This document shows positions 4,180-48,996 of a stretch of DNA of 64,000 nucleotides, one piece after another. The translations under genes were made by a program, and so were the position numbers. A model generated the notes under the pieces. It worked only from the letters and a program-made list of their open reading frames with translations. It did no database searches and had not been told where the DNA came from. Numbering within the stretch: position 1 is the stretch's first letter; every line of letters starts with the position of its first letter. The stretch is from Actinomycetota bacterium (GTDB lineage: Bacteria; Actinomycetota; UBA4738; CALAEC01), in contig JBOGVS010000011.1 of assembly GCA_050692555.1 (NCBI GenBank), positions 8,241 to 72,240 of the forward strand. The letters run 5' to 3'.

Positions 4180-5374
4180 CTACGCCGGGCCCCCGCCGAG
4201 GGTCTCCCGGAAGGGAACGTCCTTGTCCGGGCGGGGGTCTCGGGGCATGCCCAGAACCCGCTCGGCGATCAGGTTGCGCTGGACCTCGTCGGTGCCGCCC
4301 CCCAGATGGAAGGCCTTGCTCCCCAGAAGGGCCCTCTGGATCCCCTCGTGGCCCCCGATCATGCCCAGGGAACCGAGGATCCCCACGCCGACCGTGGCGG
4401 AATCGGTGACCAGGTCGGCCAGCACCAGCTTCATGATCGACCCCTCGGCATCGGGGATCTGGCCTTGCGCCAGCTTCGACAGGATCCGCTCGTTCAGGAA
4501 CTCCAGGATCCGGTTCTGGGTGTACACCCGCGACAGGGCCTGCCGGGTCAGGAACTCGTCCCCCGGACGGTCCCGGGCCAGGTCCACCAGGCTCTCGAAT
4601 GGAACGGCAAACCCCGCGGTGGCGGCCCCCAGTGAGACCCGCTCGTGCATCAGCGTGGTGACCGCCACCTTCCACCCTTCGCCGGGCTCGCCGACCCGGT
4701 TCGCGTCGGGGACACGGACCTCGGAGAGGAACACCTCACTGAAGTGGGACCCCCCGTCCATCTGGCGCAGGGGACGGACATCGACGCCGGCGCCGTGCAT
4801 GTCGACCAGCAGGTAGACCAGCCCTCGGTGCTTGGGCACATCGAAGTCTGACCGGGCCAGGAGGATCCCCCAGTCGGCCTCGCCGGCCCCGGAGCTCCAC
4901 ACCTTCTGTCCGGTGACCACCCAGTCATCGCCGTCACGCACGGCGCGGGTGGTGAGGGCGGCTAGGTCGGACCCGGCTCCCGGCTCTGAGAACAGCTGGC
5001 ACCAGATCTCGTCGCCGCGGAGCATCGGTCCCAGGCACCGGTCCTTCTGCTCCTCGGTCCCGTGGGCGATGATCGTGGGCCCGGCCATCCCGAACCCGGG
5101 AACGTTGAACGGGAAATTCGCTCGGGCCCGAGCCTTCTCCTGTTGCCACACGGCCGACTCCACCGGGCCGAACCCTCGCCCCCCGTGCTCCACCGGCCAC
5201 GCCGGAGCGCCCCAGCCGCCGTCGGCCAGCGTGCGCTGCCAGGACCGCTGCTCCTCGAGTGTGGGCTCCCGGCCTTCGTCCAGCCCCACGCTCCGTTTCC
5301 ACGCCGGGAAGTGCTCCTCGAGCCAGGCCCGGGCCTCGGCCCGGATGGCCGCGTGCTCCGGGGACTCCCTCGAC
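4180..5374 (-). CDS. acyl-CoA dehydrogenase (FadE; ChsE-type partner). GTG start overlaps the upstream ltp2-like stop by 4 nt
   Basis: ACAD motifs ...LFSEPGAGSDLAALTTRAVRDGDDWVVTGQKVWSS...GGTDEVQRNLIAERVLG. The track ORF (702 aa) is over-extended upstream; the real start is V-R-S-R-E-S-P. Confidence 0.85.
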
Positions 5375-5375
5375 C

Positions 5376-6542
5376 TCACGGCCGGTCGACCCCCAGGACC
5401 AGCCCGCTGGTGGGCACCCCGACCCCGGCCGTCACCAGGGCGTGCTCCACGCCGGGAACCTGGTTCACGGCCGTCCCCCGAACCTGACGGACCCCCTCCA
5501 CGATGCCGTTCATCCCGTGGATGTAGCCCTCGCCGATCTGCCCCCCGTTGGTGTTGACCGGCAGTCGTCCCCCCGGGTCGATGTAGCCCTCCCGAACGAA
5601 GCCCGGGGCCTCGCCGCGGCCGCAGAACCCGAACGCCTCCAGCTGCATGAGCACGAAGGGGGTGAAGGGGTCGTAGATCACCGCGGTCTGCACGTCCTCC
5701 GGACCCAGCCCCGCCTCCGCCCACAGCCGCCGGGCCACCAGCTCCGCCTCCGGCAGGCCGGTGAGGTCGTCGCGGTAGTAGCTGGTCATCTCCTCCTGGC
5801 CCTTCGCGGAGCCCTGCGTCGCGGCCCGGATCACCGCCGGCGGATTGGGAAGGTCCCTGGCCCGTTCCGCGCTGGTGACCACCACGGCCGACGCGCCGTC
5901 GGTCTCTTGGCAGCAGTCCAGCAGGCGAAGGGGCTCGACGATCCACCGGGACGACCGGTGGTCCTCGAGGGTGATCGGCTTCCCGTGGAACCACGCCGCG
6001 GGGTTGGTGGCGGCGAAACGGCGGTGGGACACGGCCACCCGTCCGAGGTCTTCCTCGGTGGCGCCGTAAGCGTGCAGGTACCGCCGGGCGAACATGGCCA
6101 CCCAGCCGGCCGGGGTGGTCAGCCCGAACGGGATGTACCAGCTGTAGTGGATCGTCGAGGCCGTCGGCTTGGAATGGGTGCTGGTCCCGAACCGTCTCCA
6201 GGAGCGACCGTTGAGAGCCCGGTAGCACACCACCACGTTCGCGGCCCCGGTGGCCACGGCCATGGCGGCCTGGTGGACGGTGGCGCACGCCGCCCCCCCG
6301 CCGTAATGGACCCTGCTGAAGAACGTGAGGTCGCCGGCCCCCACGGTCCTGGCCACCTCGATCTCCTCGTTCGTGTCCATCGAGAACGTCACCAGGCCGT
6401 CGACCTCGGAAGGGTCCAGGCCGGCGTCGTCCAGGGCGGCGGAGACCGCCTCGGCCGCCAATCGGAGCTCGGAGCGGCCGGAGTCCTTGGAGAACTCCGT
6501 GGTCCCCACCCCGGCGATGGCCGTCCGGCCGGAGAGGTTCAT
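5376..6542 (-). CDS. ltp2: thiolase-like lipid-transfer protein (SCP-x type; Ltp2-like retro-aldolase/thiolase)
   Basis: 388 aa; MNLSGRTAIAGVGTTEFSK... non-canonical thiolase fold typical of Ltp proteins. Directly downstream of MaoC/DUF35 genes, as in the mycobacterial igr operon. Confidence 0.75.
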   Translation of the reverse strand: MNLSGRTAIAGVGTTEFSKDSGRSELRLAAEAVSAALDDAGLDPSEVDGLVTFSMDTNEEIEVARTVGAGDLTFFSRVHYGGGAACATVHQAAMAVATGAANVVVCYRALNGRSWRRFGTSTHSKPTASTIHYSWYIPFGLTTPAGWVAMFARRYLHAYGATEEDLGRVAVSHRRFAATNPAAWFHGKPITLEDHRSSRWIVEPLRLLDCCQETDGASAVVVTSAERARDLPNPPAVIRAATQGSAKGQEEMTSYYRDDLTGLPEAELVARRLWAEAGLGPEDVQTAVIYDPFTPFVLMQLEAFGFCGRGEAPGFVREGYIDPGGRLPVNTNGGQIGEGYIHGMNGIVEGVRQVRGTAVNQVPGVEHALVTAGVGVPTSGLVLGVDRP

Positions 6543-6955
6543 GCCGCCCCCGCTGCGAACGTCAGGTGCACCTTGGCCGAGACGTGCTCGCCGAGGTCGT
6601 TGGCGCCGCGGACCTCGACGTCCACCTCGTCTCCCTCCACCGCGGTCACCCGGCCGGTCATCCGCATGGTGTCCCCGGGGTAGTTGGGAGCCCCCAGGGA
6701 CAGAGACACCTTCTTGAGGATGGCGTCCGGGCCCGCCCAGTCGGTCACGAACCGGCCCACGAAGCCGTTGGTAGTGAGGATGTTCATGAACACGTCCCTG
6801 GCTCCCCGGGCCCGGGCCAGGCCGGGGTCGTGGTGCACGTCCTGGTAGTCCCGGGAGGCGATGGCCCCCGCGACGATGAGGCCGGTGGTGATCTCCACGG
6901 TGAGCGGTGGGAGCTCGTCGCCCACCCTGGCCTCCGGGCGCGCCGGCCCGCTCAT
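6539..6955 (-). CDS. chsH1: MaoC-like hot-dog enoyl-CoA hydratase subunit (ChsH1-like)
   Basis: 138 aa hot-dog fold (ARDYQDVHHDP...). ATGA overlaps with both neighbours. Confidence 0.75.
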   Translation of the reverse strand: MSGPARPEARVGDELPPLTVEITTGLIVAGAIASRDYQDVHHDPGLARARGARDVFMNILTTNGFVGRFVTDWAGPDAILKKVSLSLGAPNYPGDTMRMTGRVTAVEGDEVDVEVRGANDLGEHVSAKVHLTFAAGAA

Positions 6956-8061
6956 CCCTTCCTCATCTCCGCTCCCAGCCGAGCCAGGTGCCGGTTGGCC
7001 CCGCCAAGGGTCAGCTCAACCAGCTTCGACCACCGGGTGTAGCGGTACAGCGGATACTCGACATCGACCCCGATGCCGCCGTGGAGATGCTGGGCAGCGG
7101 CCAGGACCCGCTGCCCCGCCTCGGCGGCCCAGAACTTGGCTACGGCGACGTGCTCGGCTGCGGGCAATCCCTCCGACAGCCGCCACGCGGCCTCCCACAT
7201 CGTCCATCGCATGGCCTCGACGTCGATGTACGAGTCTGCGGCGCGCTGCTGCACGGCCTGGAAGCTGGCCAGAGGCCGCCCGAACTGCTCGCGGCCGGTG
7301 GTGTACTCGGCGGTCAGGTGAAGAGCTCGCTCCGCCAGCCCCACCTGGAGGGCACACAGCCCCACCGTGGCTCGCTCCGAGATCCACGTGGCGGCGGCGG
7401 GATCAGTGCCCGGCGCCGCGAGGCTCTCGCCATCCGCTCCGCTCAGCGTCAGCTCGAATCTCGGCTCGCCGCCGGTGGCCTCCTGCCGGACCAGGGAGAC
7501 CCCGGAGCCCCCCGGGTCGACCAGGAAGATCCCGGTGTGACCTTCGGCGGTCCGGGCGGGGACCAGAACCCCGGCAGCCACGTGCGCCGCGGGGACCATG
7601 GACACCGTTCCGTCAAGAAGCCACGAGGATCCGTCGCGGCTCGCCGACACCAACACCGGCGCGGGATCCTCTTCCTCCGGTTCGGCGAGCGCGGACGTGA
7701 GGATGACATCGCCTCGAGCGACCCCCGGGAGGAGCCGGCCTCGCTGCTCGTCGGTGCCGAAGGCGACGACAGGGAGCGCACCGAGGACCAGAGCCGGCCA
7801 TACCGGGACCGGGGCCACGGTCCGTCCGACCTCCTCGAGGAGGAGGCAGGCCTCCAGGATCCCTCCGCCGGAGCCGTCGTGCTCCTGGGGGACGGTGATC
7901 CCCAGCAGACCGGCCCTGGCCAGCTCGGCCCACAGGGCCCGGTCGAACCGTTCGGGGCCGGCCTCCACCTCTCGCAGCCGGGCCGGCGTGACCTCCGCCT
8001 CCAGGATCTTCCTGGCCAGATCTCGAAGGGCCTCCTGTTCTTCGGTGAACGACAGATCCAT
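6952..8061 (-). CDS. acyl-CoA dehydrogenase (FadE; heteromeric ChsE-type subunit)
   Basis: Real start MDLSFTEEQEALRDLARKILE...; ACAD C-terminal motifs FGRPLASFQAVQQRAADSY, HGGIGV. Confidence 0.85.
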   Translation of the reverse strand: MDLSFTEEQEALRDLARKILEAEVTPARLREVEAGPERFDRALWAELARAGLLGITVPQEHDGSGGGILEACLLLEEVGRTVAPVPVWPALVLGALPVVAFGTDEQRGRLLPGVARGDVILTSALAEPEEEDPAPVLVSASRDGSSWLLDGTVSMVPAAHVAAGVLVPARTAEGHTGIFLVDPGGSGVSLVRQEATGGEPRFELTLSGADGESLAAPGTDPAAATWISERATVGLCALQVGLAERALHLTAEYTTGREQFGRPLASFQAVQQRAADSYIDVEAMRWTMWEAAWRLSEGLPAAEHVAVAKFWAAEAGQRVLAAAQHLHGGIGVDVEYPLYRYTRWSKLVELTLGGANRHLARLGAEMRKG

Positions 8062-8092
8062 CAGACGGCCCCCTCCGGGGCCACGCCCCGCA

Positions 8093-9076
8093 TCAGCCGT
8101 CCTTCCTCGGCCGGAACACCGGCACGGCCAGGTCTTCGTCCACCCCAACGAACGTCACCTCGACCGGCATCCCGATAGTCACCTCGGCGGGATCCACATC
8201 CACGACGTTGGACACCAGCCGGGTGCCCTCCTCGAGCCCAACCAGTGCCACCACGAACGGGGGCTCGAATCCCGGGATCGGCGGGTGGTGGTGGACCACG
8301 AAGCTGTAGACCTCCCCGCGGCCGGAGGCCCGGACGGTGTCCCATTCCGTCGACCGGCAGCGGGGGCACATGGGGCCGGGCGGGTGCCGGAGCTCGCCGC
8401 ACGACGAGCACCGCTGGATGAGGAGCTCGCCCCGAGCAGCGCCCTGCCAGAAGAACTCGGTGTCCTGGTTCATCGCCGGCCGGGGACGCCGCTGCGCGAC
8501 CTCGGTCCCATCGGTACGCTGGGCGCCGTCGCCCGGGCGGAACTTGAGCAGGCCCAACACCTGCGTGCCCACCACGTCGCCGCGCTGGTCCGTGTACCTG
8601 ATCCGGGTGGTGACGAAGTGACCGGAGCCCAGTGCCGTGCGCTTCTCCTCCGACACGTCCTCGACGATCGTGGTGGCGGTGATGGCGTCACCTGGACGGA
8701 GGTACCGGACGTATTCCTGCTCGGAAGACACGGCCACCACCGAGGTGAACCCCGCCTCGTCGAGGACCTCGAGTAGGCGGGGCATCGGAGCCCCCGGCCC
8801 CGGCCCCCCGTTCACGAACCCCCGCATGGTCCAGGCCTGGAGCATGGTGGGCGGGGCCACAATCCCGCCGTGGACCGACCGGGCCGCGACGTCCGCATCG
8901 GTGTACAGGGGGTTTCGGTCACCGACGGCGTCGCACCAGTGCCGGATCATGGCCTCGTTCACCGGGTCCCTGGCCACCAGCGGAGAGCCGGCCTCCTTCC
9001 CCACGAACGACCGGAGGCGGTCCAGGAACGCGGCGTCCTGGGGTTCGGCCCGGGTAGCGGCCCCGGTCTCGCTCAC
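8093..9076 (-). CDS. chsH2: MaoC-like hydratase N-domain fused to DUF35 OB-fold/zinc-ribbon C-domain (ChsH2-like)
   Basis: N-terminal hot-dog region, then C-terminal CSSCGELRHPPGPMCPRCRS...GEVYSFVVHH...GMPVEV typical of DUF35 (ChsH2 architecture). Confidence 0.8.
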   Translation of the reverse strand: MSETGAATRAEPQDAAFLDRLRSFVGKEAGSPLVARDPVNEAMIRHWCDAVGDRNPLYTDADVAARSVHGGIVAPPTMLQAWTMRGFVNGGPGPGAPMPRLLEVLDEAGFTSVVAVSSEQEYVRYLRPGDAITATTIVEDVSEEKRTALGSGHFVTTRIRYTDQRGDVVGTQVLGLLKFRPGDGAQRTDGTEVAQRRPRPAMNQDTEFFWQGAARGELLIQRCSSCGELRHPPGPMCPRCRSTEWDTVRASGRGEVYSFVVHHHPPIPGFEPPFVVALVGLEEGTRLVSNVVDVDPAEVTIGMPVEVTFVGVDEDLAVPVFRPRKDG

Positions 9077-9077
9077 C

Positions 9078-10289
9078 TCAGGTCTCCGTGCCCACGGGAG
9101 CAGGGACCTCGCGCGGCGATCGGGGGAGCCCCAGCCCGACGGTGGCGATGATCTCTCGCTGAACCTCGTTGACCCCGCCCCCGAACGTCAGGACCAGGGC
9201 GGACTGGTACACCCGCTCGAGCCGGCCGGACAGCACGGCGCCCGGCGACCCGGCCCGCAGCGTCCCGGCCTGCCCCACCACCTCGAGCAGCAGCCGGTAG
9301 GCCTCCACGAACAGCTCGGAGCCGTACACCTTCACCGCGGAGGCGTCCGCGGGGTTGAGGACTCCGGAGGACAGCTCCCAGGCCAGCCGCCAGTTCAGGA
9401 GCCGGAGGGCGTCGACCTTGGCCTTCACCCGGGCCAGCGCCAGGCGGGCCCACGGCTCGTCGATCACCGGCCGGCCGCCGGGACCGTTCGTCTCCCGAGC
9501 CCAGGCCACGACGTCGTCCAGCAGCCCCTCGACCCTCCCGGGCGGGGCCAGGGCCACCCGCTCGTGGTTGAGCTGGGCGGTGATCAGCCGCCACCCCTCG
9601 TTCTCCTTGCCGACCACCGCCGAGGCGGGGACGTGGATGTCCTCGTAGAACGTGGCGTTGGTGCGTCCGCCGTCGAGTGTCTCGATCGGGGTAACCTTGA
9701 ACCCGGGGAGCCCGGTGTCCACGATGAAGATCGTGATCCCCTTGTGCTTGGGCGCCTGGGGATCGGTCCGGGCGGCCAGCCAGATGTAGTCGGCGTCGTG
9801 GGCCCCGGTGGTGAACACCTTCTGGCCGTTGATCCGGTACCCATCTCCGTCGCGCACCGCCCGGGTGATCAGAGAAGCGAGATCGGTGCCCGAACCCGGC
9901 TCGGAGTACCCGATGGCGAAGTGGATCTCGCCGCGGAGGATCCCAGGGAGGAACTCGCGCTTCTGGTCCTCGCTGCCGAAAGCCATGAGGGTCGGACCCA
10001 CGGTGTTCAGGGTGACCACGGGGATGGGAGCGGTCGCTCGCCGGGCCTCGGAGAAGAAGATGAACTGCTCGACCGCCCCGCGGCCCTGGCCCCCGTACTC
10101 GGTGGGCCACCCGATGCCCAGCCAGCCGTCCTCGCCGATCTGCCTGGCGACACGCCGGTACACCGGGCCGCAGTGCTCGCCGGGACTGGGACCAAGCTCT
10201 TCCCTGATCTCGGGGGTGAGCAATCGATCGAAGTAGGCCCGGAGCTCGTCGCGGAGGGCCCGCTGCTCGGCGGTGTAGTCGAGGAACAC
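9078..10289 (-). CDS. acyl-CoA dehydrogenase
   Basis: 403 aa; MFLDYTAEQRALRDEL...YSEPGSGTDLASLITRAVRDGDGYRINGQKVFTTGA...GGGVNEVQREII. Confidence 0.9.
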   Translation of the reverse strand: MFLDYTAEQRALRDELRAYFDRLLTPEIREELGPSPGEHCGPVYRRVARQIGEDGWLGIGWPTEYGGQGRGAVEQFIFFSEARRATAPIPVVTLNTVGPTLMAFGSEDQKREFLPGILRGEIHFAIGYSEPGSGTDLASLITRAVRDGDGYRINGQKVFTTGAHDADYIWLAARTDPQAPKHKGITIFIVDTGLPGFKVTPIETLDGGRTNATFYEDIHVPASAVVGKENEGWRLITAQLNHERVALAPPGRVEGLLDDVVAWARETNGPGGRPVIDEPWARLALARVKAKVDALRLLNWRLAWELSSGVLNPADASAVKVYGSELFVEAYRLLLEVVGQAGTLRAGSPGAVLSGRLERVYQSALVLTFGGGVNEVQREIIATVGLGLPRSPREVPAPVGTET

Positions 10290-10292
10290 GGG

Positions 10293-11068
10293 CTACCTCG
10301 GTACCGGGGCCGATCCGCCCCACCCGATGAACGCAGTGGCTCCGCCGTCGATGACGAAGTCGGCGCCGGTGAAGTAGCTGGACTCGTCGGAGGCCAGGAA
10401 CACCATGAGCCCGGCCACGTCCTCGGTTCGTCCGACCCTCGCCGCCGGGATCTTCCCGAACAGCCCGTCGAGGTCCAGTCCGTCGAGACCCTGGGCCCGG
10501 ACCATCGGGGTGTCGATCACCCCCGGGGCCACCGCGTTCACCCGGATCTTCGAGGGACCGAGCTCCACCGCGGCAGACTTGGTCATCCCCCGGATGGCGA
10601 ACTTGCTGGCGCAGTAGGCCACCAGGCCCGCCGAGCCCCGGATACCCTCCACCGAAGAGACGTTGACGATCGAACCACCGCCGGCGTCCTTCATCGCAGG
10701 GACCGCCGTCCGCATCCCCAGGAACGCGCCGATCTGGTTCACCCGGATCACGGCCATGTAGTCGTCCAGCGAGGTGCCTTCCACGCCCCCGAACTTGAGG
10801 ATCCCGGCGTTGTTGATGAGCACGTCGAGGCGTCCGAACCGGTCTCGGACCTCCGACACCCCGGAGCTCCAGTCGTCCTCGCTGGTCACGTCGAGAGCGA
10901 GGTAGTGAGCTCCGTCCCCCAGCTCGGACGCCAGGGCCTTCCCGGGCTCGGAGGCCACGTCGGCGATGGCCACCCCGGCCCCCTCCTCCACGAACGAACG
11001 GGCCGTGGCCGCCCCGGATCCGCCCGCACCCCCGGTGATGAGCGCGACCTTCCCGTCGAGCCGGCCCA
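10293..11068 (-). CDS. SDR family NAD(P)-dependent oxidoreductase (3-alpha/20-beta-hydroxysteroid dehydrogenase-like)
   Basis: GTG start (VGRLDGKVALITGGAGGSG), catalytic YCASK, NNAG motif. The upstream part of the track ORF is spurious overlap. Confidence 0.85.
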
Positions 11069-11071
11069 CGC

Positions 11072-12226
11072 TCAGATCCCGATGCGCCGGGCCAGGAGGT
11101 CGCGATGGTACGTGGCGTCGCCCAGCAGCAGCTCGGACGACTTGGCCCGTCGGAAATACAGATGGGCGTCGTGCTCCCAGGTGAACCCGATCCCTCCGTG
11201 GACCTGGATGTTCTCGGAGGCCACGTCGAAGAAGGCGTCCGAGCAGAACGCCTTGGCCAGTGAGGCAACCACCGGGAGTTCCTCGTCGTCCTCCGCGGCG
11301 GCCACCAGCGCGTAGGCCACCGCCGCCCGGCCCGACTCCACCTGCACCAGCATGTCCGCGCACTTGTGCTTGATGGCCTGGAACATCCCGATGGGCCTGC
11401 CGAACTGCACCCGGTCCTTGGCGTAGGCCACCGCGGTGTCCAGGCACCGCTGCGCCCCGCCCACCATCTCCGCCGACAGACACACCGCGGCCTGGTCCAG
11501 GGTCATGGACAGCGCGGGCCACGCCGCCCCGGGCTCGCCGAGGGGCCGGGCAGTCACGTCGGTGAACGTCAGCTCCGCTTGCTTCCGGGTGGAATCCAGC
11601 ACCGGGAGGCTTGTTCGGGCCAGGCCGTCGGCGTCGCCGTCCACCACGAACAGGCCGACCCCCTCGGCCCCGGCGCTTCCCGGCGAGCGAGCGGCCACCA
11701 CGATGAGGCTCGCGGTGACGCCGTCGGTCACGTACGACTTGGTGCCGGAGAGCCGGTAGCCGTCACCGTCCGGGGTGGCCTCCATCCCGATGCCCTCGGC
11801 ATCCCACCTCCCGGCCGGCTCGGCCAGGGCGAGGGTGGCCACCGTCTCCCCCGAGGCGATCCGGGGAAGGAGCGCGGCCTTCTGTTCCTCGCTTCCGGCG
11901 GCCAGGATGGCGCCCGCGGCCAGGCACACCGTGGAGAAGAACGGAGCGCACAGCAGGGCCCCACCCATCTCCCCCAGCACGATCCCCAGCTCGACGAACG
12001 AGAAGCCCTGGCCTCCGTACTCCTCGGGGATGTGGATCCCCTGGAGGGCCAGCTCCTGGGCCATCTGCTTCCACACGGCCTCGTCGAAACCCTCTTGCGT
12101 CTCCATGAGCCGGCGAACCTCGGAGGAGGGGGACTTCTCGTCGAGGAACCGCCGCACGGTTCGACGGAGCTCCTCCTGCTCGTCGGTCAGCGCCAAGCTC
12201 ACGGCTTCTCGCTCCCCACGATCCAC
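11072..12226 (-). CDS. acyl-CoA dehydrogenase
   Basis: 384 aa; LTDEQEELRRTVRRFLDE...ACAD fold...HGGIGFTWEHDAHLYFRRAK. Confidence 0.85.
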   Translation of the reverse strand: MDRGEREAVSLALTDEQEELRRTVRRFLDEKSPSSEVRRLMETQEGFDEAVWKQMAQELALQGIHIPEEYGGQGFSFVELGIVLGEMGGALLCAPFFSTVCLAAGAILAAGSEEQKAALLPRIASGETVATLALAEPAGRWDAEGIGMEATPDGDGYRLSGTKSYVTDGVTASLIVVAARSPGSAGAEGVGLFVVDGDADGLARTSLPVLDSTRKQAELTFTDVTARPLGEPGAAWPALSMTLDQAAVCLSAEMVGGAQRCLDTAVAYAKDRVQFGRPIGMFQAIKHKCADMLVQVESGRAAVAYALVAAAEDDEELPVVASLAKAFCSDAFFDVASENIQVHGGIGFTWEHDAHLYFRRAKSSELLLGDATYHRDLLARRIGI

Positions 12227-13356: not shown

Positions 13357-13388
13357 TAGACGGCCCCCTTCCGGGGCGCGCCCGCCAT

Positions 13389-39150: not shown

Positions 39151-39152
39151 TC

Positions 39153-40166
39153 ATGGCCGACCCGCTCCGCCTCGGACTGGCCCTCGGCTACTGGGGCGCC
39201 GAGCCGACCCCCGGGTTCGTCGACCTGGCCCTGGAGGCCGAGCGCCTGGGCTACGAGTCCGTGTGGACCGCGGAGGCCTACGGGTCCGACGTGTTCACCC
39301 CCCTGTGCTGGATCGGGGCGCGGACCACCAAGATCAAGCTGGGGTCGGGGCTGGCCCAGATCTCCGCACGGACCCCCGCCTCCCTGGCCATGACCGCGGC
39401 CACCATCGATCACCTGTCGGAGGGCCGGCTGATCCTGGGCCTGGGAGTCTCCGGGCCGCAGGTGGTGGAGGGATGGTACGGGCAGCCGTTCCCCAAGCCG
39501 CTGGCCCGAGCTAGGGAGTACGTGGAGATCGTCCGGGCCATCCTTCGCCGGGAGGGACCGGTGGTCCACGAGGGCGAGCACTATCCGCTTCCCTACCCGG
39601 GCGGGACCGGTTTGGGCAAGCCGCTGAAGATCACCGTCCATCCGCTGCGGGCCGACATCCCCATCTACCTGGGCGCCCAGGGGCCCAAGAACGTCGCGCT
39701 GGCCACGGAGATCGCCGACGGGTGGGCGCCGATGTTCTTCTCCCCCTATCGCATCGAGCGCTACGAGGAGGCCCTGGCCGGCGCACCCGAGGGCTTCGAG
39801 GTGGCCTGCGTGGCCACGGTGGTGCTGGGCGACGACGTGGCCGAGGCCCTGATCCCGGTGAAGTGGGCCATGGCCTTCTACATCGGAGGGATGGGCGCGC
39901 CGGGGATGAACTTCCACCTCGACGTGGTGGCCAACATGGGGTTCGCCGAGGAAGCCCGGCGGGTGGCGGAGCTGTTCCGGGATGGGAAGCGGGAAGAGGC
40001 GGCCATGGCGGTCCCAGACGAGCTGGCCGACGAGATCTCGCTCGTCGGGCCCGAGAGCCGGATCCGGGAGCGGCTGGAGGCCTGGATCAAGAGCCCCGTC
40101 ACCCAGCTGCTGGCGGGGACCGGGGACCCGGCGGCCCTGCGGGTCCTGGCCGACGCGCTGTGGTGA
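39153..40166 (+). CDS. LLM-class (luciferase-like) flavin/F420-dependent oxidoreductase
   Basis: TIM-barrel LLM motifs; ...ESVWTAEAYGSDVFTPLCWIGARTTKIKLGSGLAQI... Confidence 0.8.
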   Translation: MADPLRLGLALGYWGAEPTPGFVDLALEAERLGYESVWTAEAYGSDVFTPLCWIGARTTKIKLGSGLAQISARTPASLAMTAATIDHLSEGRLILGLGVSGPQVVEGWYGQPFPKPLARAREYVEIVRAILRREGPVVHEGEHYPLPYPGGTGLGKPLKITVHPLRADIPIYLGAQGPKNVALATEIADGWAPMFFSPYRIERYEEALAGAPEGFEVACVATVVLGDDVAEALIPVKWAMAFYIGGMGAPGMNFHLDVVANMGFAEEARRVAELFRDGKREEAAMAVPDELADEISLVGPESRIRERLEAWIKSPVTQLLAGTGDPAALRVLADALW

Positions 40167-41348
<1,182 letters not shown>

Positions 41349-41434
41349 AGGGGGGCAGGGTCCCTCGTGAGTGTGGTCGGGATCATGTCCAGGTGGTCGG
41401 GATCCTGACCACCCCTGCGGAGCACCCCGCCACC

Positions 41435-41809
41435 ATGTCCTCACGCGGTGGTATCCACCTTCCGGTGGATGACCCCGACCGGGAGCTGGCGGCCATCTTC
41501 GGGCACCCGATCACGCGGACGCCCAAGCCGACCGACCGCGCCCTGGACGAGATCCTGGCCAGCCGGACCCATGTCCGGGTCCTCAGGACGCTGGCGGCCC
41601 TCGACCAGGAGCTCAATCTCACCGCCCGGGATGTGGCTCGCCGAGCCGGAGCTTCACATGGACGGGTCATGGAGGTGTTGCGGCAACTGGAGTCGCTCGG
41701 CGTGGTCACCACTCACTGGGCCCCAACTCATGCCGTGCATCGCCTGAACGTCGAGCACCCGTTGCACGCAGCTCTGCGCTCCTTGTTCGACGCGGAGCGG
41801 GAACTCTAG
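41435..41809 (+). CDS. winged-helix DNA-binding protein (MarR/ArsR-like transcriptional regulator), hypothetical
   Basis: 124 aa; RVLRTLAALDQELNLTARDVARRAGASHGRVMEVLRQLESLGVV is HTH-like. Preceded by a 22-bp palindrome. Confidence 0.5.
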   Translation: MSSRGGIHLPVDDPDRELAAIFGHPITRTPKPTDRALDEILASRTHVRVLRTLAALDQELNLTARDVARRAGASHGRVMEVLRQLESLGVVTTHWAPTHAVHRLNVEHPLHAALRSLFDAEREL

Positions 41810-42925
41810 GTGGCCCTGGAGGTCGGCGCCCCGGGGACCGTCGGTCCTCCAGTAGAGGGCCTCCTCAAGACCGCCCGGCGCAATGAAGAGAAGGGCTACG
41901 ACGCCATCTGGTGGCCCGACCACTGGATGGGGTGGTTTCCCGACTCCATGTGGACTCCCGACGTGAGCCCCCTTGCGCAGTACTCACCCAATCCCCACAT
42001 CCACCTCGACCCGGTGGCCGCCATCGCCGCGGTGGGGGTGCACACGGATCGGATCCGGTTGGGCACCTCGGTGACCGAGCCCATCCGGCGCCACCCCGCG
42101 ATGCTGGCCAACGAGTGGCTGACGCTCGATCACCTGACCCGGGGACGAGCGATCCTGGGGATCGGGGCCGGCGAAGCGGAGAACATCACCCCATACGGGA
42201 TGGACTTCTCCAAGCCAGCGTCACGGTTCGAAGAGGCCCTGGCGATCATCCGCCTCCTGTGGGAGAGCGACGGGCCCGTGGACTTCGACGGCGACCGATG
42301 GACGCTGCGCGACGCCGTCCAGGGTCTCGGTCCGTACGAGGCCGGCCGGTACCCGCCGATCTGGACCGGGGCCCGTGGACCCCGGATGCTCGACATCACC
42401 GGGCATCTCGCCGACGGATGGCTCCCGTGGTACATGCCGATCGACGAGTTCACCTCCGGGCTGGAACGGATACGCGCAGCGGCCACGAGCGCGGGCCGGG
42501 ACCCCCAGGCGATCACTCCTGCGATGTGGTGCTACGTGGTGACCGACGAGGACCACGAGGAGACGCACCGGCTCCTAGGCCATCGCCTGCCCAAGTCCAA
42601 CCTCCTGATCCTGCCCAGCGAGGCGTACGATGAGGCCGGATACATGCATCCGCTGGGCCCCGGGTTCGACGGGATCCGCGACTACATACCCACCCGATAC
42701 GGGAGGGAGGAGATCCTGTCCGCCATCGACGCCATCCCCGAGGAGTTCGCCCACGACCGAACCCTCCATGGCACACCCGATGAGCTGGTGAAGGTGGCTC
42801 GGGAGTACGAGGCCGCCGGCCTTCGGCACATCGTGCTGTGGAACATGACGTTCTTCGCCGACACGTCCCTGGTGCGGCAGAGCTTCGCACTGATCGACGA
42901 GGTCGCAGCCGCCCTGAAACGCTAG
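41810..42925 (+). CDS. LLM-class flavin/F420-dependent oxidoreductase
   Basis: 371 aa luciferase-like TIM barrel (…IRLGTSVTEPIRRHPAMLANEWLTLDHLTRGRAILGIGAGE…). Confidence 0.8.
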   Translation: MALEVGAPGTVGPPVEGLLKTARRNEEKGYDAIWWPDHWMGWFPDSMWTPDVSPLAQYSPNPHIHLDPVAAIAAVGVHTDRIRLGTSVTEPIRRHPAMLANEWLTLDHLTRGRAILGIGAGEAENITPYGMDFSKPASRFEEALAIIRLLWESDGPVDFDGDRWTLRDAVQGLGPYEAGRYPPIWTGARGPRMLDITGHLADGWLPWYMPIDEFTSGLERIRAAATSAGRDPQAITPAMWCYVVTDEDHEETHRLLGHRLPKSNLLILPSEAYDEAGYMHPLGPGFDGIRDYIPTRYGREEILSAIDAIPEEFAHDRTLHGTPDELVKVAREYEAAGLRHIVLWNMTFFADTSLVRQSFALIDEVAAALKR

Positions 42926-42929
42926 GCGG

Positions 42930-43997
42930 TCAGGCGAACAGCCCGCGGCCGATCACCGTGGGGATGTCCAGGGCGGTGAGCAGGCCGGGCGGCGCCGCGA
43001 CCACGGCGGGGATGGCGTTCACCAACCGCATGGCCGTGGCCTTCAGCCCCGCGGTGTTGTGGTCGCCGTCGGTGCCCAGGAGCTGGAGGTCCAGGGTGTA
43101 GTTGGGCTCCCCGGTGACCTTGACCCGGTAGCATCCCTGCCCCACGGGCTGGGGCCACTCGGGGGCCAGGTCGTCGCGAAGCCGGGTGACGTGCTCGAGC
43201 ACCGTGACCGGGCGGCCATCCTTCATCCCTCGGACCTCGAACCGGAGGGCCGCCGCCGTTCCCTCCTCGATGGTCCCGGAGTCGATCTCGAACTTCTCCG
43301 GCGCCGGCCGCCGCTCGTACCACTCCTCTGTTCCGTCGAGCTCGATCCCCAGGCCCGCTGCCAGCCCCCGAACCACGCCGCCCCACGCCAGCGTGAGGAT
43401 CCCCGGTTGGAGCAGCATGGGGATGTCAGCGACCGGCTTGCCGAATCCCATGATGTCGAAGATGACCATGGGCTGGTCGTAGGTGGCGTAGTTGAGGATC
43501 TCCATGCACCGGACCTCCTCGATCCGCTCGGAGATCCCCGTCAGCACCAGGGCCAGGGCGTCGTTGGCGAACCCGGGGTCGATGCCGTTGACCCACAGCG
43601 ACGCACCACCCTCGGCCGCGGCGTCTCGTACCCCTTGCACCATGTCCGGAGGGGCCACCCCGTCGGGGAAGTGGAGGAGCACTGGGCTGCTGGACACCAC
43701 GTTGATCCCGGCGCGGAGGAACCGCTTGAGGTCCTCGACCGCTTCGAACAGCCGGTCGTCGGCCATGGCCGTGTGCACGATGCAATCGGGACGGAGGGCC
43801 AGCAGAGCATCCGCGTCGTCCGAGGCCTTGATCCCCAGGTCGCGTCCCAGGCCGGCCAGCTCCCCCGCGTCCCGCCCCACCTTGTCGGGGTTGGACACCC
43901 ACACCCCGATCAGCTCCAGTTCCGGCCGGGCGTCGATCCCGGCGATGGCGTGCCGGCCCACGTGGCCGGTGCTCCACTCCACCACCCGGTACGTCAC
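42930..43997 (-). CDS. DapB-like NAD(P)-binding oxidoreductase (dihydrodipicolinate reductase N-domain family / amine dehydrogenase-like)
   Basis: Start VTYRVVEWSTGHVGRHAI (Rossmann); ~355 aa. Confidence 0.7.
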   Translation of the reverse strand: MTYRVVEWSTGHVGRHAIAGIDARPELELIGVWVSNPDKVGRDAGELAGLGRDLGIKASDDADALLALRPDCIVHTAMADDRLFEAVEDLKRFLRAGINVVSSSPVLLHFPDGVAPPDMVQGVRDAAAEGGASLWVNGIDPGFANDALALVLTGISERIEEVRCMEILNYATYDQPMVIFDIMGFGKPVADIPMLLQPGILTLAWGGVVRGLAAGLGIELDGTEEWYERRPAPEKFEIDSGTIEEGTAAALRFEVRGMKDGRPVTVLEHVTRLRDDLAPEWPQPVGQGCYRVKVTGEPNYTLDLQLLGTDGDHNTAGLKATAMRLVNAIPAVVAAPPGLLTALDIPTVIGRGLFA

Positions 43998-44007
43998 GCG
44001 GCCCTCC

Positions 44008-44796
44008 TCATAGGTCCGGGATCCCGATCTCCAGGGTGGGCGCCTCGGTCCCTCCATCGACCTCCAGCACCTTCCCGGTGATGTACGCGCCGGCCGGTGA
44101 GGTGAGGAACAGCACGGCCGTGGCGATGTCCTCGGGCTCGCCGATCCGCTTCAGCGGCGTGGCCGCCTCCATCCGAGTGCGGAGCTCCTCTTCGGTGAGC
44201 ACCAGCTCCAGCGCCGAGGTGGCCACCGACCCGACGGCGATGGCGTTCACCCTGATCCGGGGCGCGAGGTCCCGAGCCGCCAGCCTGGTGTAGTGGGCCA
44301 GCGCGGCCTTGGCCGTTCCGTAGCCCAGGTATCCGCGCCCGGTGACCCGGCCCATCACCGAGGAGATGTTCACCACCGCCCCCCCGTCGTTCTCCACCAT
44401 GATCGGGGCCGCGGCCTGGGTGAGGGCGTGGGCGGTGCCCACGTTGAACCGGAAGGCCTGCTCCAGCGTCTTGGGTGAGGTGTCCATGAACGGGGCGGGC
44501 ATCCACCCGCCCACGTTGTTGACCACAACATCGACCCGGCCGAACGCGTCCTTCGCCGTCTCCGCCAGTCCGGCCACCGCGTCGAGGTCGCTGAGGTCGG
44601 CGGGGACCACCACGGCCCGGCGACCGACCTCCTCCACCCGGTTGGCGACCTCCTTGAGCTGTTCCTCGGTGCGAGAGGAGATCACCACGTCCGCTCCGGC
44701 CTCGGCCAGGGCGATGGCGATGGCGGCGCCGATCCCCCGGCCCGCGCCGGTGATGACGGCGACTCGGTCGGTGAGCTGGAAGCGGTCGAGTATCAC
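44008..44796 (-). CDS. SDR family oxidoreductase
   Basis: [25 protein letters not shown]. Confidence 0.85.
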
Positions 44797-44800
44797 GCGG

Positions 44801-45925
44801 CTAGGCCGCGACGGCCGCGGCTTCCCGGAACTTCGTGGTGCGGTGCACCGGGTCGGGGTCGAGCTTGGGGATCACGTGCTTGCCGAACAGCCGGATCGAC
44901 TCCAGAGCCGCCTCGTGGGGCATGTCCACCGGCAGGCCGAACACGATCTGGTCGGCCCCGATGCTCTCGTACTTCTTGACCTGCTCCAGGACCTCGTCGG
45001 GGTCCCCACACAGGAGGTACCCCTCCTGGATCCGGAACTCCACCTCTTCGGGGGTGGGGTCGGGGAGGAGGCTGGGCCAGTCGGGGATGCCGGGGGGCTT
45101 GGGGAAGGTGTCGTGGTACCGGAACACCAGGCTCTGGAGGAGCCCGGAACCCATGTCCGCGGCCACCTCGCGGGCCCGCCTGCCATCCTCCAGGCAGACC
45201 ACGCTGTTGGTGATCATCACGTTGTCGTTCACGAAGTCGCCGATCGGCTCGGCTTCGGCGATGGCGTTCTTGTACGCCGAGACCATGGGCTCCATCTGCT
45301 TCGCGGCGGAGAAGTTGAACCCCAGGACGCCGAGGCCGTTGCGGGCGGCCTTCTCGTACGTCGGGGGGTTCCCGGCGGCCTGCCAGATCGCCGGGTGGGG
45401 CTTCTTCCACGGCTTGGGGAGGACGTTCCGGGTGGGGACCGAGAACGACTTCCCCTCGAAGCTGTACTCGGTCTCCCGCCACATCCGGGGGAACTCCTTC
45501 AGGACCTCGTCGAACATCGGCTTGGTGTCGTCGGTGGAGGGGATCCCGAACCCGGTGACCTCCAGGCTCCCCGCACCCCGGCCCACGCCGAACTCGTACC
45601 GGCCGTCCGACAGGTGGTCGAGGAGGGCCGCCCGCTCGGCCACCCGGACGGGGTGGTTCACCGGCGGGGAGATGTTGAAGATCGCCGAGCCCAGGTGGAT
45701 CCGCTCGGTGGCCGCCGCCAGGTAGCCCAGGAACACCTCGGACGCCGACAGGTGGGAGTACTCCTCCAGGAAGTGGTGCTCGGACACCCACACGTACTTG
45801 AACCCGGCCCTGTCGGCCTCCTTGGCCAGGGCGACGTCCTCGAGCAGCGTGGTGTGCTCATAGTCCGGGTCCTGCTGGAGCCGGCGCCGAGGTACGTGAC
45901 CCTGGAGGAAGATGCCGAACTCCAC
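44801..45925 (-). CDS. LLM-class flavin-dependent oxidoreductase (luciferase-like monooxygenase)
   Basis: 374 aa; [12 protein letters not shown]... typical LLM N-terminus. Confidence 0.85.
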
Positions 45926-45968: not shown

Positions 45969-45982
45969 TAGAACGTGTTTCA
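45969..45982. promoter_or_regulatory. KstR-type operator TAGAACGTGTTTCA
   Basis: Palindrome 44 bp upstream of the LLM operon start. Confidence 0.6.
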
Positions 45983-46044: not shown

Positions 46045-46824
46045 CTAGGGGTGCTGGTTGCTCACCGAGACGATCTCCCCGGTCATGTACGAGGAGTAGT
46101 CGCTGGCCAGGAACACGATCACGTTGGCCACCTCCCACGGCTCGGCGGCTCGGCCGAACGCTTCCCTGGTGACCAGCGCCTCCAGCACCTCCTCGTCCAT
46201 CACCTTCTTCAGGAACGGGTGCATGGCCAGGCTGGGGGCCACGGCGTTGACCCGGACGCCCGCGGAGGCGGCCTCGATCGCCGCCGTCCGGGTGATGGCC
46301 ATGATCCCCGCCTTGGCCGCGGCGTAGTGGGCCTGGCCCTCCTGGGCCCGCCAGCCGAGGACGGACGAGACGTTCACGATCACTCCGGACCGCCGAGGCA
46401 GCATGTGCCGGAGCGCCGCCCGGGTGCACCGGAGCGTCCCGGTCAGGGACACGTCGATCACCGCGTTCCACTGGTCGTCGGTCATGTCCACGATGGTGGC
46501 GGTCCCGCCCAGCCCGGCGTTGTTGACCGCAACGTCGAGCGATCCGAACTCGGCGACGGCCGCGTCGAACAGCCGCTGGACGTCCTCCTCCACGGTGACG
46601 TCGCATCGAACGGCCACGGGCATCGCGCCGGAGATGTCCTTGAGCTGGCCGGCCGCCTCCGCCAGCCGGCGCTCGTGGATGTCGCCGATGGCCAGCCGGG
46701 CACCCTCCTCCGCGGCCCGGCGGGCCGTGGCGAACCCGATCCCGGCGCCGGCCGCCGCGGTCACCAGGACCGACTTGCCCTCCAGCAGGTTGTGCGCGCT
46801 GGGGTACGGAGGGAGCTCAGTCAC
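46045..46824 (-). CDS. SDR family oxidoreductase
   Basis: 259 aa; VLVTAAAGAGIGFATA, NNAG, YAAAKAG. Confidence 0.85.
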   Translation of the reverse strand: MTELPPYPSAHNLLEGKSVLVTAAAGAGIGFATARRAAEEGARLAIGDIHERRLAEAAGQLKDISGAMPVAVRCDVTVEEDVQRLFDAAVAEFGSLDVAVNNAGLGGTATIVDMTDDQWNAVIDVSLTGTLRCTRAALRHMLPRRSGVIVNVSSVLGWRAQEGQAHYAAAKAGIMAITRTAAIEAASAGVRVNAVAPSLAMHPFLKKVMDEEVLEALVTREAFGRAAEPWEVANVIVFLASDYSSYMTGEIVSVSNQHP

Positions 46825-47836
46825 GGGCGGCGTCCTCCCGGAGGCGAGCGGCCACCGCCGCCCGGTGCTCCGCGGGGGTCCCGAACGCGAACTCCAGGGC
46901 CTTCCCCCGCTTCAGCCACAGGTGGAGGTCGTGCTCCCAGGTGAACCCGATCCCCCCGTGACACTGGAGCGCCTCGGTGCCGGCGAAGGCCGCCACGTCG
47001 GAGGCATGGGCCTTGGCCACGGCGGCGGCGATGTGCCGATCGGGAGAGGACCGGGCCAGGGCGTACGCCGCCCACCACGCCGCCGACCGAGACGACTCGA
47101 GGAGGACGTACACGGATGCCAGCTTGTGCTGGACGGCCTGGAACGAGCCCACCGGGCGACCGAATTGGTGGCGGTCCTTCACGTGGGCCACGGACATGTC
47201 GAGCATCCGGATCGCGATCCCGTTCAGCACTGCCGCAGTTGCTGCCGCCCCTCGGGCAAGGCCTTCCGCATCCGCCGTGCTTCGGCCGACCATCCGGGTG
47301 GAGGTCGACGTGGTCGCCTCCACCGAGAAGAGCCGGCGAGAGCGGTCCTCGGCCGTTACGGCTCGATATCGGAACTCGCCGCTGGGCACCGCGTGCAACT
47401 CGCTCTTTCGCTCGACGATCAAGAGATCGGCGATGTCGGCGTCGACGACGACGGGCGCATCGTGAAGCTGCACGCCGACCACTGCCTCGCCTCGGGCGAT
47501 CCTCGGAAGCCACTCCTGGCGCTGCGCTTCGGTGCCGGCCTCCGCGATGAGCGGAGAGGCAACTGCCACCGTCTCCACCAGCGGCTCGGGGAGGGCGGCC
47601 CGGCCGGCCTCCTCCAGGACCAGAGCCAGGTCCACCTCGTCACCCCCCGCGCCCCCGTGCTCCTCGGGGACGGTGAGCCCCAGGAGTCCCACGTCGGCCA
47701 GGGTTCGCCACACCGCGGGGTCCCGCGGCTTGCGGTCCCACAGCTCGCGCAGCCTGGTGGGCGGCGACTCCTTCTCGAACAGGTCCCGGGCCATATCCCG
47801 GAGCGCGTACTGCTCGGGCGAGAAGTCGAAGTCCAT
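46817..47836 (-). CDS. acyl-CoA dehydrogenase, short (beta-type) subunit of a heteromeric FadE pair
   Basis: 339 aa; MDFDFSPEQYALRDMARDLFE...HGGIGFTWEHDLHLWLKR. Confidence 0.8.
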   Translation of the reverse strand: MDFDFSPEQYALRDMARDLFEKESPPTRLRELWDRKPRDPAVWRTLADVGLLGLTVPEEHGGAGGDEVDLALVLEEAGRAALPEPLVETVAVASPLIAEAGTEAQRQEWLPRIARGEAVVGVQLHDAPVVVDADIADLLIVERKSELHAVPSGEFRYRAVTAEDRSRRLFSVEATTSTSTRMVGRSTADAEGLARGAAATAAVLNGIAIRMLDMSVAHVKDRHQFGRPVGSFQAVQHKLASVYVLLESSRSAAWWAAYALARSSPDRHIAAAVAKAHASDVAAFAGTEALQCHGGIGFTWEHDLHLWLKRGKALEFAFGTPAEHRAAVAARLREDAARD

Positions 47837-47838
47837 CG

Positions 47839-48996
47839 CTAGCCCCGCGGAAGCCCCAGGACCCGCTCGGCCACGATGTTCCGCTGGATCTCGCTGGTCC
47901 CCGCGTAGATCGTGGCCGCCCGGGCGAACCAGTACCGGGAGTTCCAGCCCGCCTGATCGGCCACCGGCGCGTCGGAGAGCGTCTCGCCGTACGGCCCCAG
48001 CACGTCGCGGCCGGTCTCATACAGGTCTCGCTCCAGCTCCGACCACAGCAGCTTGGTGACGCTGGCCTCCGAGCCGAGGGACTCCCCGCTGGCCAGCCGG
48101 GTCAGAGTCCGGAGCGTGTAGGCCCGGTACGCCTCGGCCCGCACGAACAGCTTGGCCAGAGCGTCGCTCGTCACCGGGTCCTGATCCAGGCCCCGGGTCC
48201 GGGCCACGGCGGCAAGCTCCCGGACCTCGCGGAGATACGCGGCTGCCGGCGCGGCCGGAGAGTCGCGCTCGAACCCCAGGATGGCCAGGGCCACGGCCCA
48301 GCCGCCGTCCACCTCGCCGATCACGTTCTCGTGCGGGACCCGAACCCCGGTGAAGAACACCTGGGCGAACCCCGCGTGGCCGTCGATCTGGATGATGGGC
48401 CGGGCTTCGACACCGTCGGAGCGCATGTCGATGCCCAGCACGGTGATCCCACGGTGACGCTCGGCGTCCGGGTCGGTTCGGACCAGGGCGAAGATCGAGT
48501 CGGCGAACGGACCGTACGACGTCCAGATCTTCTGTCCGTCGACCACCCAGTCGTCTCCGTCGCGAACGGCCTTGCACCGGAGCCCGGCCAGGTCGCTTCC
48601 GGCCTCGGGCTCCGAGAACCCTTGCGACCAGATCACGTCGGCCGACAGGATCCCCGGCAGCCACCGGCTCCGCTGCTCGTCGGTGCCGTGAGCCATCAGC
48701 GCCGGGCCGAGGAGGTTGTGGCCGACCACGGTGATCCGTTCGGGGCCACCGGCAAGGAGGTACTCCTCCTCGAAGATCGCCTGGTGGACCACGTCCAGGC
48801 CTCGGCCGCCGTACTCCTCGGGCCAGCGGATGGCCCCGTATCCGGCGGAGGCCAGCGTTCGCTCCCACGCGCGATGCGCGTCGAACCCCTCACGGGTCCC
48901 CGTCGACGGCAGGGGCTCCTTAGGCACGTCGGCCCGGAGCCACTCGCGCACCTCGTCGCGAAACGACTCCTGTTCGGGTGAGAGGTCGAGGTCCAT
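47839..48996 (-). CDS. acyl-CoA dehydrogenase (alpha-type subunit)
   Basis: 385 aa; FSEPEAGSDLAGLRCKAVRDGDDWVVDGQKIWTS...AGTSEIQRNIVAERVLG. Confidence 0.85.
   Translation of the reverse strand: MDLDLSPEQESFRDEVREWLRADVPKEPLPSTGTREGFDAHRAWERTLASAGYGAIRWPEEYGGRGLDVVHQAIFEEEYLLAGGPERITVVGHNLLGPALMAHGTDEQRSRWLPGILSADVIWSQGFSEPEAGSDLAGLRCKAVRDGDDWVVDGQKIWTSYGPFADSIFALVRTDPDAERHRGITVLGIDMRSDGVEARPIIQIDGHAGFAQVFFTGVRVPHENVIGEVDGGWAVALAILGFERDSPAAPAAAYLREVRELAAVARTRGLDQDPVTSDALAKLFVRAEAYRAYTLRTLTRLASGESLGSEASVTKLLWSELERDLYETGRDVLGPYGETLSDAPVADQAGWNSRYWFARAATIYAGTSEIQRNIVAERVLGLPRG

Follow-up and report, generated by a model that had tools for sequence, protein, structure and literature searches.

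The locus described here, a stretch of 64,000 nucleotides (referred to below as the window) of contig JBOGVS010000011.1 from an uncultured soil Actinomycetota bacterium, raises the question of whether a cluster of genes for the breakdown of sterol or steroid side chains is controlled by a repressor of the KstR type, as known from Mycobacterium and Rhodococcus. The original prediction had proposed this on finding eight 14-bp palindromes of the form TAGAAC-N2-GTTCTA. We consider it highly probable that such a regulon is present: the motif, a TetR-family protein whose nearest relative is KstR, the conservation of the boxes in related organisms and the steroid side-chain gene set all agree with the proposed signature of a cholesterol-type KstR regulon. 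The evidence supports a known type of system in a new uncultured lineage; the operators in themselves are unsurprising, and it is the association with a transporter, together with the lineage, that is noteworthy.

Exact string search locates each of the eight 14-mers as a single copy in the window, precisely where it had been reported (Table 1). The accompanying claim that they fit the literal consensus TnnAACnnGTTnnA holds for three of them (15426, 36099 and 45969, against 0.09 matches expected in the window), with the remaining five each missing one specified position. A literal search, which recovers three of the eight boxes, was rejected as a detection method and replaced by a weight matrix of 14 bp, symmetrised and derived from 47 sites of M. 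tuberculosis and M. smegmatis (Kendall et al. 2007, Table 3, PMC1995591); only these published mycobacterial sites were used for training in order to avoid circularity. The training sites themselves score between 12.8 and 26.8 bits with this matrix. The eight boxes, at 18.9 to 25.2 bits, lie inside that range and are the eight highest-scoring positions in the window, none having been missed and none being false, and beneath them scores drop to 13.4 bits (position 2025, coding) and 10.7 bits. Among 200 first-order Markov simulations of the window the maximum was 17.9 bits and 18 bits was never attained; as the G+C content of the window is approximately 70%, an A/T-rich dyad is improbable by chance. 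The match scoring 13.4 bits (TGGATCAGGTTCCA, 2025-2038) is slightly above the weakest training site, falls within the coding region of a LOG-family gene and is also present in the near-identical relatives L109 and L110; it is probably non-functional. The operator of KstR2 (AnCAAGnnCTTGnT) was also considered and rejected, its two one-mismatch matches in the window both being coding and at chance level.

Genes were called by third-position G+C. The calls were checked by Pfam and NCBIfam searches and by comparison with public gene calls for a record that contains the window (positions 8255-72254 of contig CDIQYQ010000068.1, metagenome-assembled genome GCA_975419715.1). Start codons were refined using ribosome-binding sites and homology, giving ATG 23795 for a cytochrome P450, GTG 23905 for an enoyl-CoA hydratase (EchA), ATG 15416 for the first DUF35 gene and GTG 45925 for a luciferase-like monooxygenase (LLM). 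With these starts all eight boxes are intergenic, in keeping with the claim that they are confined to promoter-like gaps; intergenic DNA makes up 5.2% of the window (P ~6e-11). The distance between a box and the start codon that it faces is 9-43 nt, and some divergent promoter regions hold paired boxes (boxes 2 and 3, and boxes 4 and 5). Box 2 shares its 14-mer core type with the Rv3531c site that was positive in electrophoretic mobility shift assays (Kendall 2007, PMC1995591). Box 7 is, from its position, the predicted autoregulatory operator of the kstR-like gene.

In all eight boxes the perfect, better-conserved GTTCTA half points to the nearest downstream gene. Its final TA opens a TANNNT-type hexamer in five cases (TAGTAT, TACTTT twice, TAGATT and TAATTT) and a weaker one in the others (TACTTG, TACTTC and TATAGA), so a bound repressor would be expected to cover the -10 element. 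An overlap of the KstR box with the -10 element has been described for the mycobacterial system (Kendall 2007, PMC1995591). For the genes encoding the alcohol dehydrogenase (ADH), EchA19, KstR-like, FadD19 and DUF35 proteins the hexamer ends 5-9 nt ahead of the start codon, a spacing that suggests leaderless transcripts, while the fadD, P450 and LLM genes possess leaders of 20-35 nt with ribosome-binding sites. In the gap between kstR and the divergent acyl-CoA dehydrogenase (ACAD) gene, a TAGACT hexamer is located 8 nt ahead of the ACAD ATG; with this spacing box 7 would fall on the -35 region of the ACAD promoter, which a bound repressor would then block as well.

The candidate repressor is the TetR-family protein encoded beside box 7, whose start is either GTG 36125 or ATG 36134 (the latter being the public gene call, 207 aa). 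Its top four matches among solved structures are all KstR of M. tuberculosis, with E values from 2.5e-29 (3MNL) to 4.8e-28. Identity to that protein reaches 64% (32/50) in the helix-turn-helix region, where the two recognition helices hardly differ (RADVALGTVYRYF here, RADVAVGTLYRYF in KstR). KstR is also its best NCBIfam family by a wide margin, the runner-up scoring 54.7 bits. The protein thus reads as a divergent KstR-like regulator that appears to have kept the DNA code while the ligand domain changed, and not as a strict equivalog. Were this so, the KstR operator/repressor pair would reach into a deep uncultured soil lineage with its DNA code almost unchanged.

Relatives with regulators 58-91% identical to this one were available for comparison (L001 and L041-L045); when reference genomes were searched with the regulator, L001 emerged as the one true relative, besides 37 irrelevant TetR matches from Firmicutes. 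A common module is kept in the relatives, running leftward from a box through an ACAD gene, an ATP-binding cassette (ABC) importer, two genes for proteins of no known family, FadD19 and an NMO-type oxidoreductase, and rightward through kstR, a thiolase, a short-chain dehydrogenase/reductase (SDR), an aldehyde dehydrogenase and an LLM, the order of the rightward genes being the same throughout. Across relatives with regulators 52-91% identical, the flanking DNA diverges and the boxes stay at the same positions. When the six orthologous ACAD/kstR gaps were aligned, the sole run of invariant columns was AA.TGCAACA[G/C]GTTCTA, and in every relative examined 12-21 nt separate a box from the kstR-like start codon. 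Within L041-L045, boxes occur before kstR, before FadD19 (TAGAACACGTTCT[C/A]) and, in some, before the FadA5-type thiolase. A counterpart of box 6, at the same position and of near-identical sequence, was identified in L042, L044, L045 and eight metagenome loci, and the 14-mer of box 5 (on the reverse strand) adjoins EchA19 in L075. An independent test was made from the side of the transporter by scanning metagenomes with an alignment of its binding protein, which yielded 60 soil contigs. Boxes were found in 19 of these. Wherever a contig reaches upstream of the ACAD and binding-protein genes (14 cases), it has both a kstR-like gene and a box, and five more distant contigs carry two boxes directly upstream of the binding protein.

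The enzymes encoded by the cluster show homologies that appear specific to the steroid side-chain pathway. The putative Ltp2 aldolase matches Ltp2 of Thermomonospora curvata (6OK1_A, E 5.8e-167) and scores 671 bits against PRK07855 (cut-off 469); homologues with 72% identity to it are labelled Acidimicrobiales. The ChsH2 protein combines MaoC-like, zinc-ribbon and OB (DUF35) domains and matches 6OK1_B of T. curvata (4e-46) and 4WNB of M. tuberculosis (5e-35). A gene for a ChsH1-like MaoC protein of 138 aa adjoins it, so that the Ltp2/ChsH1-ChsH2 arrangement is present. For the putative steroid-type ACAD pairs, the structures of ChsE4-ChsE5 and Tcur3481-Tcur3483 are the best matches: the beta subunit in the 12-gene operon is closest to Tcur3481 (1e-83) and 4X28_D (1e-64), and the alpha subunit in the unit at 46045-48996 to Tcur3483 (1e-61) and 4X28_A (9e-59). 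The ACADs at 6952-8148 and 46817-47836 are without a Pfam middle-domain match. FadA5 passes the cut-off of the 'steroid 3-ketoacyl-CoA thiolase' family (NF005889, 668 bits, cut-off 515), as does the FadD19-like synthetase that of PRK07798 (747 bits, cut-off 543). The EchA19-like protein exceeds the cut-off of PRK07799 (388 bits, cut-off 316) and falls below that of the EchA19 equivalog (NF051848, 366 bits, cut-off 400). The P450 is closest to the reconstructed CYP125 ancestor (8VXI, E 2.4e-153).

A dimer of the TetR-family protein (36125-36757) would thus bind the eight palindromes and hold their promoters closed until a side-chain-activated steroid metabolite binds the repressor. The inducer of M. 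tuberculosis KstR is reportedly a 3-oxo-cholestenoyl-CoA thioester. Release would de-repress, by operon inference, nine units of approximately 37 genes between 4180 and 45925, the boxes themselves spanning 30.6 kb. Among the products would be a terminal hydroxylase resembling CYP125, together with a ferredoxin, dehydrogenases for alcohols and aldehydes, a pair of acyl-CoA ligases, EchA19, FadA5, steroid-type alpha/beta ACADs, KstR itself and a Liv-type importer, and the last three side-chain carbons would be removed by the ChsH1-ChsH2 hydratase and the Ltp2 aldolase. The claim that a box precedes each of the listed operons stands for those of the ACAD, Ltp, MaoC/DUF35, FadD, P450, EchA and kstR-like genes; the FadA5 thiolase gene (40185-41348) has no box of its own and lies inside the kstR operon. 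Likewise, the extent of approximately 45 kb given to the regulon (4180-48996) is that of the catabolic cluster and has to be shortened at its right end, where no box precedes the ACAD-ACAD-SDR unit (46045-48996): the best matrix score in 48997-49100 is 0.9 bits, and the unit may be constitutive or under another control.

The points that weigh against a KstR-type steroid regulon are taken here together with the alternatives. No promoter or terminator emerged when 15300-28000 was scanned with E. coli-type models, an approach that is uninformative for high-GC actinobacterial promoters; the proposed promoter overlap is read from the TANNNT hexamers. The coincidence of the TA of the GTTCTA half with -10-like hexamers would also suit a lineage-specific promoter element (for example, an extended -10), or a chance recurrence, in place of an operator. 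This is scarcely credible, however, as the motif is a 14-bp dyad, unlike promoters, with the half facing away from the gene conserved too; it matches gel-shift-validated operators from another bacterial order, is missing from other promoters in the window (for example, 48997-49056), and zero matches are expected by chance according to the simulations. As regards the regulator, its overall identity to M. tuberculosis KstR is only 34%, its score against the KstR equivalog of NCBIfam (NF033703) is 147.7 bits, below the curated cut-off of 280, and its inducer may be different from that of M. tuberculosis because the ligand-binding domain has diverged. The low equivalog score could mean that the boxes are bound by another TetR paralogue encoded elsewhere and that the adjacent kstR-like gene is merely a target. 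We regard this as very unlikely, since the placement of a box just before the kstR-like start, constant in every relative examined, is the kstR autoregulatory arrangement (Kendall 2007, PMC1995591) and the recognition helix scarcely departs from that of KstR, a protein with this very palindrome as its operator.

The nature of the substrate leaves more room for doubt. Under the same regulation the cluster could act on lipids of the methyl-branched or isoprenoid kind, or on carboxylates that resemble bile acids and enter through the importer, the steroid-like enzymes then being paralogues for other bulky acyl-CoAs. The P450 ties between extant CYP125 (8e-100) and CYP124 (1.5e-99), a methyl-branched lipid hydroxylase, and the typical cargo of importers of the Liv type is a small solute that is polar or carboxylated. 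KshAB, HsaABCD, KstD and IpdAB were not seen in the window or in approximately 100 kb of the contigs of relatives, which leaves complete steroid catabolism unproven. Kendall et al. also argued that KstR governs a broader use of lipids (PMC1995591). Against a non-sterol substrate, no CYP124 comes near the match of the P450 to the reconstructed CYP125 ancestor, the Ltp2 protein matches a characterised steroid side-chain aldolase with the E value given above, and FadA5 is above the steroid thiolase cut-off. The ChsH1/ChsH2(DUF35)/Ltp2 trio, studied by the Sampson laboratory, is to date known solely for the steroid side chain attached at C17. A substrate other than a sterol or steroid is, on balance, improbable. 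Within the steroid reading, it is a possibility, because ring-degradation genes were not seen nearby, that these organisms do no more than trim the side chains of sterols, with C19 or C22 steroids as the released products. Housekeeping or further beta-oxidation genes also border the cluster in two relatives whose contigs measure 285-292 kb. The claim that mce4, hsaABCD and kshAB are missing from the window is in agreement with the Pfam and NCBIfam searches, in which none of the genes of the window showed a domain of the Mce, Rieske-oxygenase or extradiol-dioxygenase type; its scope is the window and a few contigs of relatives.

The operon divergent from kstR encodes the importer, which Pfam places in the HAAT (Liv-type) family by a Peripla_BP_6 binding protein, a BPD_transp_2 permease and two LivG/LivF-type ATPases. 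The binding protein (33167-34669) possesses a lipoprotein signal and a Gly/Thr-rich linker, and its sole solved relative, 3HUT, is a weak match (E 8.8e-7); the permease is a fusion of 646 aa with two matched BPD_transp_2 stretches. Upstream of the binding protein an overlooked gene for a ferredoxin of 64 aa was added (34685-34879). Two envelope proteins are encoded at the end of the operon (27899-29742): one is a secreted Gly/Thr/Pro-rich protein of 434 aa with a C-terminal anchor and a weak 'choice-of-anchor P' match, and the other, of 180 aa, has two transmembrane helices, a Cys-containing C-terminal domain and no family assignment. Over 10 independent contigs encode both of them together with the importer. 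The importer module is found beside kstR and a box in L042-L045 and 14 metagenome loci, and is box-linked in 19 independent soil contigs overall. Because this linkage to the boxes is consistent, the importer is, by association, a reasonable candidate for a steroid uptake system. 

A wider proposal, which we put forward tentatively and think rather less than probable, is that the KstR regulon forms a self-contained side-chain module in a widespread soil lineage, with uptake by this divergent Liv-type importer and the two envelope proteins (a secreted and anchored protein of ~430-515 aa and one of ~180-215 aa with two transmembrane helices) and not by Mce4. If true, non-mycolate actinobacteria would have in it their first candidate system for the uptake of steroids or steroid acids, none having been identified in these bacteria according to Bergstrand et al. 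2016; literature searches found no paper tying a Liv-type importer to steroid catabolism, and for Nocardioides simplex mce genes are listed under KstR (PMC7593942). Earlier metagenome surveys ascribed soil sterol turnover chiefly to Mycobacterium and Rhodococcus. The conserved operator served here as a search handle and brought out a box-linked transporter module that is a testable candidate for steroid import without a mycolate outer membrane. Homologues of the binding protein were also observed beside a P450 35-37% identical to the CYP125-like enzyme, with no KstR box, in L051, L058 and L069 (also L095, L099, L105 and L106); these loci may represent a second context for the same transporter family.

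Box 1 has a history of its own. Between the FadD and DUF35 genes (window 15417-19713) lies, in the opposite orientation, a gene for a STAND-type NTPase with WD40 repeats, which is also present in L109 (1-1140, ~98% identical). In L107 (1260-1300) and L108 (1210-1250) the FadD gene is followed by the DUF35 genes after 2 bp, in one operon of 13 genes with no internal box and no STAND gene, and the FadD-type ligase opens this long side-chain operon in relatives. The gene order of the 12-gene part is identical in L107-L110. Box 1 is identical in L109 and absent from L107 and L108, and its place is the 5' end that the 12-gene operon acquired on being cut off from FadD. From this comparison the STAND gene appears to be an insertion into the ancestral operon and, while lying inside the span claimed for the regulon, is probably not a member of it. 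Box 1 would owe its existence to this split and would restore KstR control after the insertion, an instance of operon repair in which a mobile STAND gene divided an ancestral operon and the cut-off part now has its own predicted KstR-controlled promoter. Copying of box 1 from the region of another box was considered and is unsupported, as the flanks differ except for the box and the following CTTTTC, which also follows box 5. A defence-system scan of the STAND protein gave only a weak match, to a nucleotide cyclase-like domain in the N-terminal region.

In comparison with the KstR regulon of Mycobacterium and Rhodococcus (Rv3574/MSMEG_6042, PMC1995591), the locus shares the same 14-bp operator, a kstR gene that is autoregulated (predicted here) and divergent from an ACAD gene, paired boxes in some divergent promoter regions and boxes overlapping the -10 region (likewise predicted here). 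The ACAD encoded divergently from kstR is of 396 aa here, whereas FadE34 is of 711 aa. A similarity of gene content to the mycobacterial regulon is confirmed for homologues of the side-chain targets (cyp125, fadD19, echA19, fadA5, chsE-type ACADs, chsH1/chsH2 and ltp2), while organisation, importer and ring genes differ: mce4, hsa, ksh and kstD are not found within or beside the cluster, a Liv-type importer with two envelope proteins occupies the kstR-divergent operon, one side-chain operon of 12-13 genes takes the place of the separate igr, fadE26-27 and related units, and the host belongs to an uncultured non-mycolate soil lineage. The regulator also differs from mycobacterial KstR in its diverged ligand-binding domain, its low overall identity and its score below the NCBIfam cut-off. 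The analogy with the Mce4 sterol importer is functional only, consisting of an uptake system under (predicted) KstR control beside catabolic genes. There is no sequence relationship between the two, with no MlaD/Mce or YrbE domains in the window and a HAAT-family system with a lipoprotein binding protein in their stead. Computationally predicted KstR sites before sterol catabolic clusters have likewise been described outside Mycobacteriales, in N. simplex (PMC7593942) and Saccharopolyspora hirsuta (PMC9782250); both are cultured and have mce genes and ring-degradation clusters, neither of which was seen here, and their transporter family is different. The closest solved homologues are T. curvata Ltp2-ChsH2(DUF35) (6OK1) and Tcur3481-Tcur3483 (6WY8/6WY9), a comparison that covers enzymes only.

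The boxes and the predicted transcription units of the cluster are listed in Table 1.

Table 1. Predicted KstR-type boxes and the genes and operons of the catabolic cluster (window coordinates; operon limits and box assignments are predictions)
Feature	Position	Strand	Box sequence and score, or predicted controlling box	Setting, content or basis
Box 1	15426-15439		TAGAACACGTTCCA, 25.2 bits	9 nt upstream of ATG 15416 (12-gene minus-strand operon), 50 nt upstream of STAND gene
Box 2	21286-21299		TAGAACACGTTCCT, 19.4 bits	30 nt upstream of fadD start 21255 (minus)
Box 3	21332-21345		CAGAACGTGTTCTA, 20.9 bits	10 nt upstream of Zn-ADH ATG 21356 (plus); overlaps -10-like TAGTAT hexamer
Box 4	23830-23843		TAGAACATGTTCTC, 22.3 bits	34 nt upstream of CYP125-like ATG 23795 (minus; ribosome-binding site present)
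Box 5	23881-23894		TAGAATGTGTTCTA, 20.4 bits	10 nt upstream of EchA19-like GTG 23905 (plus); overlaps TACTTT hexamer
Box 6	27857-27870		TAGAACACGTTCTC, 20.9 bits	12 nt upstream of FadD19-like GTG 27844 (minus)
Box 7	36099-36112		TGCAACAGGTTCTA, 18.9 bits	58-nt gap between ACAD start 36066 (minus) and kstR-like start 36125 to 36134 (plus)
Box 8	45969-45982		TAGAACGTGTTTCA, 23.7 bits	43 nt upstream of GTG 45925, LLM-SDR-DapB-like operon (minus)
12-gene side-chain operon	4180-15416	-	box 1	DUF35, DUF35, thiolase-like, Ltp thiolase, ACAD, SDR, ACAD, ChsH2, ACAD beta, ChsH1-like MaoC, Ltp2, ACAD (Pfam)
nSTAND1-WD40 NTPase gene	15490-19701	+		1403 aa; Pfam nSTAND1 (E 5.9e-124) and WD40
FadD-type acyl-CoA ligase	19714-21255	-	box 2	Pfam AMP-binding
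Zn-dependent alcohol dehydrogenase	21356-22435	+	box 3	Pfam ADH_N and ADH_zinc_N
CYP125/CYP124-clade cytochrome P450	22596-23795	-	box 4	solved-structure matches
EchA19-like enoyl-CoA hydratase	23905-24702	+	box 5	NCBIfam
FadD19-like acyl-CoA synthetase, NMO-type FMN oxidoreductase, DUF4345 protein	24747-27844	-	box 6	Pfam, PRK07798
kstR-divergent operon	27899-36066	-	box 7	ACAD, ferredoxin, binding lipoprotein, fused permease, two ATPases, two unknown proteins (Pfam, public gene calls)
kstR-like TetR repressor gene	36125-36757	+		Pfam TetR_N and TetR_C_20
Rest of kstR operon	36754-42925	+		SDR, aldehyde dehydrogenase, LLM, FadA5, small MarR-like ORF, second LLM (Pfam)
LLM, SDR, DapB/DAP_DH_C-like oxidoreductase	42930-45925	-	box 8	Pfam
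SDR and steroid-type alpha/beta ACAD pair	46045-48996	-	no box of its own	

Within the kstR operon, the small MarR-like open reading frame (ORF; 41353-41809, 138 aa, weak Pfam match) separates FadA5 from the second LLM and is absent from L001 (11604-11608), which is 87% identical. L001 possesses approximately 2.2 kb of additional DNA between the second LLM and the DapB-like gene. The cluster is flanked on the left by genes for ThiI, a LOG-family protein, RibD_C and glycolate oxidase, and on the right by those for a hybrid histidine kinase/LuxR protein, a cyclase, a thioesterase and a sugar phosphotransferase system. The first of the right-hand genes (49574-51457), immediately adjoining the cluster, encodes a fusion of 627 aa that joins a histidine kinase (HisKA_3, HATPase), a receiver and a LuxR-type DNA-binding domain. 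The phosphotransferase system (56532-63379) is complete (EI, HPr, PfkB kinase, EIIA, EIIB and EIIC), is accompanied by a DeoR regulator and a Zn-dependent alcohol dehydrogenase, and is unrelated to the regulon.

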